IMG/VR virus record: IMGVR_UViG_3300028603_000034
Location: 11,147-75,146 of that record
From: a virus
Taxonomy: Duplodnaviria; Caudoviricetes
Strand: one strand, 5' to 3'
DNA: 64,000 nucleotides
Shown here: one piece after another, positions 3,156 to 5,887 of the stretch
Layout of the letters: every line of letters begins with the position of its first letter
Numbering within the stretch: the stretch's first letter is position 1
The notes under the pieces: generated by a model
Told to the model about the DNA's origin: nothing
Database searches by the model: none
What the model saw: only the letters and a program-made list of their open reading frames with translations
Program-made: the position numbers and the translations under genes

Positions 3156-3224
3156 TTACTAAATGTTTAATTAGATCATCAATCTTTTTCATGTGATCCT
3201 TTTTTATCTTTTCCTCTTTCCATT

Positions 3225-4043
3225 TTAACTCCTAATCAACAATTTAAGTGCAGAAAATAATCTATCCAATCTCAAGAAAGTATCTTTTATTTCTTCCCAA
3301 TTTGAAACATACTTACGCTCTTGATTATTAAATCTAATATATTCTTTTACTTTTGAAAAAGAAAGATTATAAATAATTTTATTATTTGCTTTTTCTATTT
3401 TTACTTTATAATTTATACCCGAAACACGGGTATTGAATCCTAATAAAGTCTTTCTAATTTCATAAGTATCTCCCATTTTTCTAATAGGATAAATATTAAT
3501 ATTAGGAATAGACATTTTATAATCTTGTAAATGATTTTGCAAAGGAATTTTATTTAACGATGATAACATAACGGGATAAGAAATATTATTGTCCACATAT
3601 GATGTTTTCTGAAAACAAGTATCAACTTCTAAAATAAATAGATTAATAGGAATAGATACAATATATCTATGATTGTTATTAAATACATTTGAATAAAGTT
3701 CTAATACATCTTTACATTCTATCCAATACGAATAACCTTCTAACCACAATCTACCATTAGGACTAATAGGAGATAGTTGATTAATTAATTTATATATTTT
3801 ATCATAATTATCAGGACTATTATTTAATATATCAATCAAACAATAATGTTTAATAACAACAGAACTTGGAGCAATTATTCTTCCAATTCTAATCTTAATA
3901 TTATTACTCATATCTTTAGATAATTGTTTATCTTTCTGTATTTGTTCATCTGAAACAAATTCATTGTATTCATATCTTTTTTTTAATTTGGTGATTAAAT
4001 TATCGTGAAACTGTAATAGTTTAGTTTTATATAATAAATTCAT
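3225..4043 (-). CDS. Hypothetical protein
   Basis: 272-aa ORF with AGGAG RBS; a WLEGYSYW segment is weakly reminiscent of heparinase II/III-like proteins, too weak to call. Confidence 0.6.
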   Translation of the reverse strand: MNLLYKTKLLQFHDNLITKLKKRYEYNEFVSDEQIQKDKQLSKDMSNNIKIRIGRIIAPSSVVIKHYCLIDILNNSPDNYDKIYKLINQLSPISPNGRLWLEGYSYWIECKDVLELYSNVFNNNHRYIVSIPINLFILEVDTCFQKTSYVDNNISYPVMLSSLNKIPLQNHLQDYKMSIPNINIYPIRKMGDTYEIRKTLLGFNTRVSGINYKVKIEKANNKIIYNLSFSKVKEYIRFNNQERKYVSNWEEIKDTFLRLDRLFSALKLLIRS

Positions 4044-4195
4044 TACATTATTCTCCTAACATATTAATCATTTTAGAATAAAACTCAACACTATCTGCTA
4101 ATTTCCTATAATCAATCATCTAGTACCATCCTTAAAAACTAATTTTGTAAGATCACTCATTTTCTTTAAATCTTCCATTGTTAAACCGTAAGTTA

Positions 4196-4257
4196 TAGCA
4201 ACGCCTATTCAAACGCCCGAAGCGGTATTTCCGTTTTGGGCTTTGATTGTTGTGTGA
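4196..4257 (-). other. attC-like recombination site
   Basis: TCACACAAC AA TCAAA GCCC AAAA CGG AAATA CCG CTTC GGGC G TTTGA ATAGGC GTT: nested TCAAA/TTTGA, GCCC/GGGC and CGG/CCG stems; spacer lengths are not fully canonical. Confidence 0.6.
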
Positions 4258-4455
4258 TGTACTAATTTAAACCTTTGATAAGGCTCATAACTTCTTTAGC
4301 ACACCAAAAAATAGGTTCCTCTTCTCGAATTTCATCATCCGTCATATCCTCTTCAATCCACGGTTCTGTATCGCCCAAAACACCTTCAAGTGTGTCAAAA
4401 ATAACTTTTAACTTGTCTTTCATCGTAACCTCCTTAAAATTAGTATTTCACACAA
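4202..4455 (-). mobile_element. Integron-type gene cassette (single ORF plus attC-like site) integrated at G|TT
   Basis: Starts G|TTGTGTGA, then RBS AAGGAGG, 53-aa ORF, TCACACAAC inverse core, imperfect palindrome, G|TT; GTTG shared at both junctions. Confidence 0.75.
4262..4423 (-). CDS. Cassette-borne 53-aa acidic protein (not in ORF track)
   Basis: MKDKLKVIFDTLEGVLGDTEPWIEEDMTDDEIREEEPIFWCAKEVMSLIKGLN*; strong AAGGAGGT RBS. Confidence 0.75.
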   Translation of the reverse strand: MKDKLKVIFDTLEGVLGDTEPWIEEDMTDDEIREEEPIFWCAKEVMSLIKGLN

Positions 4456-4583
4456 CTTCCTCAAGAGCACCATATATCTGATAATTCAACAATTTCTAAT
4501 ATTTTACAACCTTGTTTCTTAGCATCATTATATTCAGATATTTCCTCTGAAATATGCGTTTTATGATATCCCAAGTGTTCCTC

Positions 4584-5033
4584 CTACCCAATTCTTTCTT
4601 TTAATAATTTAGACAACACACTTTTATTTAAGATTCTACTATCAGTTTCAGTAATTTCTTTAATTATTTTGCCCATTAATTTCATAGAGACTTCTTCTCC
4701 ATTCCTCTCGATGTATTCATCTAACCAATTAGATAAATCAGATTCAGGAATTTCTTTTGGTGAAACAATGTCAATTAACTTCAATTGATGTTCCAATTCT
4801 AACAATTTATCAGTTTGTTTATTTGATTGTCTAACATATCCCATTTCTTCATTGATTTTCTTTTTTTCTTTTTGAAAAATAGAAATTACAATTTCATCAG
4901 TAGGCGACTCAATTCTCTGTTCCATCACTACATTTTGAATCTGAGCATCTATATATCTAAAAAATGATACGGTTGATTTTTCACCACTTTTCATTGCGTT
5001 ATTAATTGCAGTTTTAATAACAGTATATAACAT
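4584..5033 (-). CDS. GatB/YqeY domain protein
   Basis: INNAMKSGEK N-terminus, QKEKKKINEE, EEVSMKLMGKIIKEI; helical 149-aa YqeY pattern. Confidence 0.75.
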   Translation of the reverse strand: MLYTVIKTAINNAMKSGEKSTVSFFRYIDAQIQNVVMEQRIESPTDEIVISIFQKEKKKINEEMGYVRQSNKQTDKLLELEHQLKLIDIVSPKEIPESDLSNWLDEYIERNGEEVSMKLMGKIIKEITETDSRILNKSVLSKLLKERIG

Positions 5034-5081
5034 ATATCTCTCCTTTAAATATGTTTTTCAATATAACTTCTGTACGAAGGG

Positions 5082-5402
5082 CTATTCGCCCGAGTCAGGT
5101 TGATTAGCTTGTTCGGTGTTTTTGGCACCTTCGATAATTTCAAGCCCAAGTCTTTTATAAAACGAAACCAACTTTTCCAAATCGATGCTGTTCTCCCTTG
5201 GGGTGGCTTCGATTTCAATTCTGCCTTGATAGCCAGTTTTCCTGATTTCGTTTATTACGAATTGTAAATGCTTTCTCGCATGACCTTGTCCCCGGTATTC
5301 CGGCTCAATATACAAATTGAATATCACGGGGTTTTTACCCGGCTCGATAGAATAATAGCAATAACCATATTTATCGTGAAAAAAGTTTTCGCATTCTTCC
5401 AT
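5082..5402 (-). CDS. GNAT-family acetyltransferase, apparently horizontally acquired
   Basis: IFNLYIEPEYRGQGHARKHL (acetyl-CoA motif A) and LVSFYKRLGLE; visibly higher GC than its neighbours. Confidence 0.8.
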   Translation of the reverse strand: MEECENFFHDKYGYCYYSIEPGKNPVIFNLYIEPEYRGQGHARKHLQFVINEIRKTGYQGRIEIEATPRENSIDLEKLVSFYKRLGLEIIEGAKNTEQANQPDSGE

Positions 5403-5887
5403 TCCAAACTCCTATCCAACTGACGTTTCGTTAATAAACCACTTATGTTAGTATGATTAATATAATTAATGTCACAAATAAAATCAAGTTCATAATGAAC
5501 ATATAACAACATTCTCGGATAGTATGTCTTTTATTTTGTTTCCAACTTCCTCCCAAGATAATTCCCCTGCACCACATCCTGGTTTACATATTTTTTCAAT
5601 AAATATTTAAATCTTTATAATACATTCCTTTAGGAATTACGGAAACATCTTTCATTACCAGTCCTCAACATTTGAGCTTGACAATGGTATATTTCAACAT
5701 TAGTTAAGTTTAACTCTTCACCACACCCACATTTAACTTTAACAATACTTTGCCCTCTGTTCACAATCCAATTTAAATTCCATTATAGTTCCTTTAATTT
5801 TTAATTTTCTCATATACGTGGCAGACTTTTCCAGAATCATCATAAATAGGATAATTAACATTATTTCCAAAATTAATATTCATGCTA

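Follow-up and report, generated by a model that had tools for sequence, protein, structure and literature searches.

A 254-base cassette organized like an integron gene cassette interrupts a small MazG-like gene in the genome of a large phage. It was probably captured there, at a GTT secondary site, by a site-specific recombinase that is probably not IntI. Integrons are regarded as bacterial devices, found mostly in Proteobacteria and run by IntI, and aadB in RSF1010 is an example of IntI capture at a secondary site. The phage cassette resembles such an event in its layout, and related cassettes form arrays on other phage contigs.

The window analyzed here is a 64,000-base stretch that covers bases 11147-75146 of a 75-kb IMG/VR virus record. 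Because this record is estimated to be 32% complete, it suggests a whole phage genome of about 230 kb. The window has 27.3% GC, carries almost every gene on its minus strand with strong Shine-Dalgarno sites and encodes a baseplate-wedge protein; no tRNA genes were found in this phage DNA. Around the insert, the minus-strand order is a YqeY-like gene, an open reading frame (ORF) starting at TTG 4574, a 53-aa ORF, a hairpin and a short tail ORF ending at 4116. Four further independent assemblies of this phage (L006-L009) all have the cassette and an identical gene order. Elsewhere in the window, about 480 bases (5403-5887) between a GNAT acetyltransferase gene and the next long ORF contain only short overlapping ORFs of 22-62 aa. 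The features of the interrupted locus are as follows.

4584-5033, minus: YqeY-like gene.
4457-4574, minus: 5' part of the split MazG-like gene (pseudogene), with TTG start at 4574-4572, from alignments to P0006, P0007, P0008 and Schickermooser gp224.
4470-4478, minus: deletion of 2 bases in an AT run, GATATATATGG in relatives and GATATATGG in the window, from alignments to four intact homologues.
4202-4455, minus: inserted cassette, 254 bases, drawn at G|TT.
4434-4456, minus: 5' arm of the own-end inverted repeat, GTTGTGTGA-AA-TACTAATTTTAA, that is, 9-base core, 2-base bubble and outer arm.
4262-4423, minus: cargo ORF, 53 aa, acidic, pI 4.1, with ribosome-binding site AAGGAGG at 4429-4435.
4249-4271, minus: 3' arm of the own-end inverted repeat, TTTAAATTAGTA-CA-TCACACAAC, which overlaps the stop codon; its last bases are the inverse core ...ACAAC.
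4203-4248, minus: attC-like imperfect palindrome, AA / TCAAA GCCCAAAACGG / loop AAATA / CCGCTTCGGGC [G] TTTGA / ATAGGC.
4116-4201, minus: 3' part of the split gene, (V)AITYGLTMEDLKKMSDLTKLVFKDGTR, with stop at 4116-4118.

An initial annotation of this sequence proposed that removal of 4202-4455 restores ALEEV-AITYGLTMEDLKKMSDLTKLVFKDGTR* within a small gene that starts at 4574. The rejoining is supported, as deletion of the 254 bases yields ...GALEEV|AITYGLTMEDLKKMSDLTKLVFKDGTR*, which is collinear with intact homologues. The uninterrupted frame from 4574 is not, since it terminates at TGA 4461-4463. This frame does not continue into ALEEV because 2 bases of the AT run at 4470-4478 are missing. 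The 5' part of the gene, which is preceded by an AGGAGG ribosome-binding site at 4580-4585, reads MGYHKTHISEEISEYNDAKKQGCKILEIVELSDI, then a frameshift, then YGALEE. Its N-terminal region also has about 12 codons fewer than its homologues. Given the 2-base frameshift and the codons lost near the N-terminus, the gene that houses the cassette is a decayed pseudogene.

Intact homologues were sought with the broken gene read through as a query and an X placed at the frameshift. Three proteins of 80-89 aa (P0006, P0007 and P0008) match over their full lengths at 54-59% identity, with E values from 1e-13 to 2e-16. In DNA alignments they are collinear across the rejoined junction, where no codon is gained or lost (...GALEEV|AITYGL... 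in the window versus ...GALEALAETYGL... in P0006), so the insert splits the gene without changing a codon. The 84-aa gp224 of Escherichia phage Schickermooser matches the sequence that precedes 4456 and, compared as protein, also the tail that follows 4202. A Pfam search with gp224/P0001 gives a weak PRA-PH (MazG-type) match. The reading frame is uninterrupted in all four of these relatives; the initial annotation had proposed to look for the empty allele in related phage genomes. An empty allele of the same phage was not found, as every independent assembly has the insert; in L008, the one assembly of the four with an alignment over the junction, this stretch has the same sequence as the window, frameshift included. 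The neighbors of the intact homologues have no synteny to the window, so these genes do not represent a true empty allele. The empty-allele junction 22-mer and the cassette leader were both absent from the metagenome_contigs and viral_contigs collections, a weak negative because the same scans also missed known JGI copies.

The broken gene is unusual in another respect. Ninety-five of its bases (4454-4548) match a hypothetical gene present in 23 coliphages of the rV5-like group (Phapecoctavirus) at 75-76% DNA identity, and the rest of 3200-5400 has no match to any deposited phage. Conservation of this kind is unexpected between a 27%-GC uncultured phage and coliphages.

The tetranucleotide GTTG is present at both insert junctions (4456-4453 and 4202-4199, minus strand), which leaves the exact boundary positions uncertain by up to 4 bases. 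The collinear homologues and the folded site bear out the earlier reading of a precise insertion at GTT(G) inside a phage gene, with the layout of integron cassettes at secondary (GWT) sites. The insert begins G|TTGTGTGA and carries the exact complement TCACACAAC at 4249-4257. As first noted, these sequences belong to an extended inverted repeat, which spans 23 nt with 20 of 23 matching and a 2-nt mismatch after the ninth base. It is the sole repeat of its kind in the 64-kb window (2 matches versus 0.15 expected) and in the 75-kb record. The insert has 37.8% GC compared to 27.3% for the window, and its composition is foreign.

An imperfect palindrome ending in G|TT had been described after the ORF, and it is found at 4203-4248, ending in GGC|GTTG. 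It leaves 2 bases unpaired on the 5' side and 6 on the 3' side, and has an extra G on the 3' arm. The 46 bases between the right repeat arm and the junction form an 11-pair stem plus two flanking helices. Folded as single-stranded DNA, 4203-4248 yields -9.3 kcal/mol (z -2.3) for the minus strand and -12.5 kcal/mol (z -3.8) for the plus strand. When G-T pairs are allowed, the plus strand of the hairpin folds better than the coding strand. The reconstituted circle joint is predicted to fold as a single long three-part palindrome, at -21.6 and -25.2 kcal/mol. On the plus strand, 4215-4241 has an intrinsic-terminator-like score, in the orientation opposite to all local genes. An Rfam scan of 3800-4900 at E<=10 gave no match, and hence neither a group I intron nor any known RNA is recognized at the insert. 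A group I intron was also rejected on other grounds: too little of the insert is non-coding, and a U-ending exon together with a G-ending intron cannot both be derived from the GTTG repeat.

The insert holds one promoterless ORF with its own ribosome-binding site, as the initial annotation stated; no promoter-like minus-strand site was found in 4424-4460 or at the junction. Because this ORF has the same direction as its neighbors and its own ribosome-binding site, the cargo gene is probably expressed together with them. Differences among its homologues fall at 19 third, 5 first and 3 second codon positions, a concentration indicating that the ORF codes for protein. A structure model of the 53-aa product has a three-helix fold (pLDDT 89), and the protein has no Pfam, PHROG, Atlas or PDB fold match. 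A search of IMG/VR for relatives with the 53-aa protein, and likewise for the YqeY neighbor, returned none.

Copies of the cassette in other contexts establish that the insert is a mobile unit, as had been supposed. The contig L010 holds an identical 53-aa protein within a 208-base repeat-bounded core that matches at 206 of 208 positions, amid flanks unrelated to those of the window. Homologues with 81-83% identity are found on three short contigs (L003, L004 and L005). In alignments, the similarity among copies starts exactly at GTTGT and stops exactly at ACAAC. Both ends have changed together in L003-L005, which have GTTGTACGC/GCGTACAAC against the GTTGTGTGA/TCACACAAC of the window. On L004 and L010, cassettes of 200-300 bases follow one another in tandem, and every unit reads (G)TTGT...leader-RBS-ORF...ACAAC + palindrome + C|GTTGT. 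To within the 4 bases of GTTG, the insert starts and stops where the units of these arrays do, an agreement that random breakage would not give.

The hairpins of these copies have a different history from the cores. The hairpin after the L010 copy (L010:351-393) is homologous in layout to that of the window, but is identical at only 28 of 43 positions, with compensatory changes, compared to 99% identity for the core. Hairpins of the homologous cassettes in L003-L005 are unrelated to the window's. For these reasons, cores and hairpins seem to assort separately, a pattern that a single crossover at G|TT does not predict. All-versus-all BLAST of 30 cassettes recovers the 53-aa family as the only one common to different loci. 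The 88-aa protein of L010 is found on L010 only. A 149-aa ORF of L003 was considered as a YqeY protein and rejected. At four places (L010:548-693, L010:797-909, L004:100-261 and L187:2147-2304) the folded site is 110-160 bases long and covers at least the last 100 bases of its own ORF. Coding sequence and recombination-site structure would use the same bases in such overlapping cassettes.

Further members of the family were found by several routes. Scans of genome and viral collections with 14-mers gave nearly all chance matches, the real one being L187. This match and a gapped pattern scan led to rows of cassettes on IMG/VR phage contigs. Our own regex/stem scanner was dropped as neither sensitive nor specific, with 95 matches versus about 85 in shuffles. 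A covariance model of the array-type site (R1, threshold E<=1e-4) identifies 40 co-oriented sites, in rows of 5-7, on the contigs of at least four phages in IMG/VR (IMGVR_UViG_3300038954_000279, 3300031673_000740, 3300037796_000177 and 3300037504_000539). R1 does not detect the window's own site, filters off included. Site lengths in the family range from 52 to 181 bases. The arrays sit among early recombination and replication genes, and those in L187 and L266 adjoin exonuclease or recombination genes. One 39-kb contig (IMGVR_UViG_3300038954_000279) seemingly carries two arrays, L187 with 6 model matches and L264 with 5. A cassette in L266 (4224-4808, minus strand) encodes an MT-A70 DNA methyltransferase, which fits a published remark that orphan methyltransferases are among the cargo of phage attC clusters (PMC9892861).

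The sites in these arrays have a conserved architecture. In the R1-site stem, 10 of 11 pairs have changed on both sides, and 87% of the stem cells are paired, versus 75% in shuffles and 22-38% in slid controls. Such strong covariation argues that the stem structure is under selection. In a set of 30 cassettes, the first 9 bases pair with the inverse core of the same cassette at 8.2 of 9 positions, compared to 6.9 of 9 between the two halves of a single junction. Own-end complementarity is better than same-site complementarity in 24 of these cassettes, worse in 4 and tied in 2. This pattern is what a G|TT crossover at the inner edge of R' would be expected to leave, and is a hallmark of integrons. 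In 17 of 29 cassettes, the window's included, the complementarity continues into an own-end stem about 20 bases long that always has an identical 2-base bubble (AA opposite CA), against a null rate of 0.6%. The outer arms of the junctions are cassette-specific, and the junctions have no conserved promoter. Alternatively, the long own-end stems could have a function at the RNA level.

Members of the family are not confined to phages. A sample of 151 Clostridia genomes yielded two single sites. One of these (L287:15700-16330, on G043:C9) is followed by a cassette for a 92-aa membrane protein with the design of 9-base core, 2-base bubble and outer arm, its ends being GTTATCCGA-AA-CCGG and CCGG-AA-TCGGATAAC. 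This cassette adjoins chromosomal genes for a GDPD phosphodiesterase, a PIN toxin and an FMN reductase at the end of its contig.

Recombinase genes are scarce near these cassettes. The initial annotation saw no intI in the window, and this holds for the whole 75-kb record (G000), from which tyrosine recombinases (PF00589) are absent altogether. They are also absent from 5 of the 6 array-bearing phage fragments; record and fragments alike are 21-54% complete. The sole tyrosine recombinase near an array is an Xer-like protein (L266:717-1865) encoded two genes beyond it, and it scores 21.9 bits versus a cut-off of 265 for IntI (TIGR02249). No IntI over this cut-off was found in G043 and G079, the two Clostridia genomes with sites. 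Serine recombinases (PF00239) and Y1 transposases (PF01797) were not found in G000-G004, that is, the record and four array-bearing fragments. The earlier proposal that a host integrase captured a cassette into the replicating phage genome is therefore divided by these results: a precise cassette insertion is present, and IntI as the capturing enzyme finds no match at its cut-off in the record, the related records or the genomes examined.

A canonical attC site has core sites R'' (RYYYAAC) and R' (GTTRRRY), which are mutually complementary. It is a folded imperfect palindrome of 57-141 bases that comprises an L stem, a central spacer that stays unpaired and a terminal loop that varies. The window site, at 64 bases, is likewise a folded palindrome with loop and spacers. 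Its core pair, ACACAAC and GTTGTGT, keeps the AAC and the GTT, each core being one position off the consensus. In the reconstituted site 9 bases are complementary (TCACACAAC and GTTGTGTGA), and the R' found in situ is the hybrid GTTGCTATA, as expected after secondary-site insertion.

Capture by a classical host IntI, which would have moved a true integron cassette, canonical attC included, out of a bacterial integron into a secondary GTT site of the replicating phage genome, is nonetheless unlikely. In its favor, the insert is arranged like a secondary-site cassette, and both the G|TT crossover signature and the own-end complementarity are present. A C precedes GTT, which is also the case in most attC sites (PMC2727003), and the 6-base 3' spacer, which ends in GGC, resembles the class-1 spacers TCCGGC and TCAGGC. 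IntI inserts cassettes at genomic GWT (attG) sites and disrupts genes in doing so, and the target GTT fits this consensus (bioRxiv 10.1101/2022.09.11.507474). Moreover, attC sites in virulent phages recombine with IntI1 (PMC9892861). However, the core is GTTGTGT instead of GTTRRRY. The spacers are 2x6 in the window and 1x4 in the array type, compared to 5x6 in ten extracted class-1 sites, which agrees with the initial remark that they are not textbook; the 5' spacer thus has 2 bases, or 1, instead of 5. In both L010 sites, as in that of the window, a single extra base is located on the L'-R' arm (ORF-sense strand), yet the observed boundaries call for a crossover at R' of this strand. In canonical attC sites the extrahelical bases, including the G in L'' of the bottom strand, are on the R''-L'' arm and direct strand choice (PMC2727003). 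The 20-base own-end stems with their bubble are not an attC feature. The attC covariance-model check that had been suggested also speaks against a canonical site, within the limits of a narrow model (R2) built from 10 class-1 attC sites. R2 scores its training sites at 39-72 bits and L284, a near-duplicate of one of them, at 62. It gives the phage array sites 7-8 bits at most, in the right places and orientation yet at noise level, and reports no match at the window's own site. The only tyrosine recombinase near an array is far below the IntI cut-off, and the two Clostridia genomes with sites have no IntI above it. Nor does a bacterial integron appear as the source, as the related arrays are on phage contigs and in a Clostridia genome, a Firmicutes lineage from which complete integrons are absent (PMC4889954). 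Given this departure from canonical attC, and a lineage that resembles Bacillota, a recombinase other than IntI, of host or phage origin, is more likely than a classical integron integrase.

Explanations of other kinds fare less well still. A small non-autonomous transposon with terminal inverted repeats, in which GTTG is a 4-base target-site duplication, would account for the 23-nt inverted repeat (20/23) and for the GTTG that flanks the 254 bases. This reading, which had been named as one that would overturn an integron-type origin, is hardly credible because the right repeat arm is internal: it lies (4249-4271) 47 bases inside the right boundary, where the actual terminus ...TTTGAATAGGC has no partner. 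A transposon that comprised 4249-4456 only would leave the 46-47-base hairpin to the gene, which the collinear homologues and the frame exclude. GTTG is also part of the repeat arm and of every array unit boundary, not a variable target copy, and the cassettes stand head to tail with common junction sites, unlike transposon insertions. Very improbable, too, is 'peel and paste' insertion 3' of GTTG by an IS200/IS605- or REP-type HUH/Y1 enzyme that recognizes the hairpin. The position of the hairpin about 10 bases from the right end, the identical tetranucleotide at the left flank and right end, the absence of a true duplication and the better folding of the plus strand all agree with such an event. 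Against it, the left end has no subterminal hairpin, PF01797 is absent from the five records searched (fragments), and elements of this type do not have own ends that are complementary over 9-20 bases.

Finally, there may be no dedicated enzyme. Modules could be shuffled by homologous or microhomology recombination at junction hairpins, as in the PeSL cassettes of T4-type phages, and the insert would have arisen once, through illegitimate recombination at a microhomology of 4 bases. The function of own-end stems and hairpins would then be in the processing, stability or termination of mRNA. In T4-type phages, PeSL recombination produces circles and reshuffles small ORFs (Arbiol et al. 2010, PMC2839356). 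The exonuclease and recombination genes beside the L187 and L266 arrays, the terminator-like score of the hairpin (though on the plus strand) and the separate assortment of cores and hairpins point the same way. The own-end stems, moreover, would close off each mRNA immediately beyond its ribosome-binding site and stop codon. This explanation is nevertheless quite improbable. The target gene has no homology to the junctions, yet both insert ends are on array unit boundaries (within GTTG), and PeSL-type shuffling cannot place a unit with exact array boundaries in a target that lacks homology. PeSL junctions join a strong early promoter to a terminator stem-loop; here 4424-4460 and the insert junction have no promoter-like minus-strand site, no promoter is conserved among the junctions, and the outer arms vary with the cassette. 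The variable core bases track the cassette and not the junction, whereas exchange anywhere within the junction would scramble them.

Capture by a site-specific recombinase other than IntI may have proceeded as follows. The cassette system occurs as arrays in phages, with at least one case in a Clostridia chromosome. Its cassettes are composed of a 9-base core that begins (G)TTGT, a leader with a ribosome-binding site, a small gene, and an inverse core ...ACAAC that precedes a palindrome ...C|GTT. A cassette would leave its array as a circle by joining ...ATAGGCG to TTGTGTGA..., and the excised-circle junction would read ...GAATAGGCG|TTGTGTGAAATAC. A conservative site-specific recombinase would then cross this circle, within GTTG, with a chance GTT(G) in the MazG-like gene, whose empty allele before capture would have been ...GAGGAAG|TTGCTATAAC. 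The event would split the gene and leave the hybrid right-hand core. The split gene would have decayed afterward, or may already have been decaying, through a 2-base slippage deletion and the loss of about 12 codons.

A broader interpretation is offered more tentatively. Phages with hosts of Bacillota type, and some of these hosts, may possess an integron-like cassette system that uses another recombinase and another site design, and the window may record a natural secondary-site capture between unrelated phages. The site design, as part of the same tentative picture, would combine an ACAAC/GTTGT 9-base core, a 2-base bubble, a self-closing cassette-specific outer stem and an independently exchangeable hairpin.

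Phage-borne attC clusters were first reported in 2023 (PMC9892861). A cassette caught in a recognizable gene, together with a 99% identical copy in an array, is direct evidence of cassette traffic between phage genomes, and the insert in the window fixes where the mobile unit begins and stops, with a margin no wider than the 4-base GTTG repeat. Its sites and those of the arrays depart from attC rules consistently and in a lineage without integrons, so that the recombining enzyme and the role of the own-end stem become testable. If the cargo genes, which encode tiny acidic proteins and methyltransferases, are counter-defense genes, this system would provide a route for phages to trade them.

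Several known systems share some of these elements. IS200/IS605 and REP/RAYT elements also have an imperfect hairpin near one end, a fixed tetranucleotide and no real duplication. They differ from the cassettes described here, which have no left hairpin and no Y1 enzyme that could be found, occur in arrays and have long own-end complementarity. PeSL cassettes are likewise small ORFs of unknown function bounded by stem-loops in large myovirus genomes, for which circles and shuffling are proposed. They carry a strong sigma-70-type promoter and exchange by repeat homology, whereas the cassettes here have no conserved promoter, a boundary fixed at C|GTT, complementary own ends and a non-homologous target (PMC2839356).

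The closest parallels are with integrons. Like integron cassettes at attG sites, the insert comprises one promoterless ORF and a folded palindromic site with a putative G|TT crossover, its first bases complement its own inverse core, and it occupies a bare GTT in a gene that it disrupts. In both cases the hybrid right-hand core probably traps the cassette. The cassette core here is GTTGT(G/A)(T/C)G and not GTTRRRY, the spacers are 2x6 (array type 1x4) and not approximately 5x6, and the arm that bears the extra base is the opposite one. The cassettes here also differ by an own-end stem that runs for about 20 bases and has a fixed 2-base bubble, and no IntI was found. Phage CALINs, which are attC clusters without an integrase, were found by IntegronFinder/HattCI, and 5 of 6 sites recombined with IntI1 (Qi et al. 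2023, PMC9892861). They share with the present arrays co-oriented small cassettes, folded sites, a location in phage genomes that include virulent ones, the lack of a nearby integrase, and a methyltransferase cassette, here the MT-A70 gene of L266. In contrast to CALINs, the sites described here are non-canonical and putative, and the window contains a single cassette alone in a gene, which shows an actual capture.
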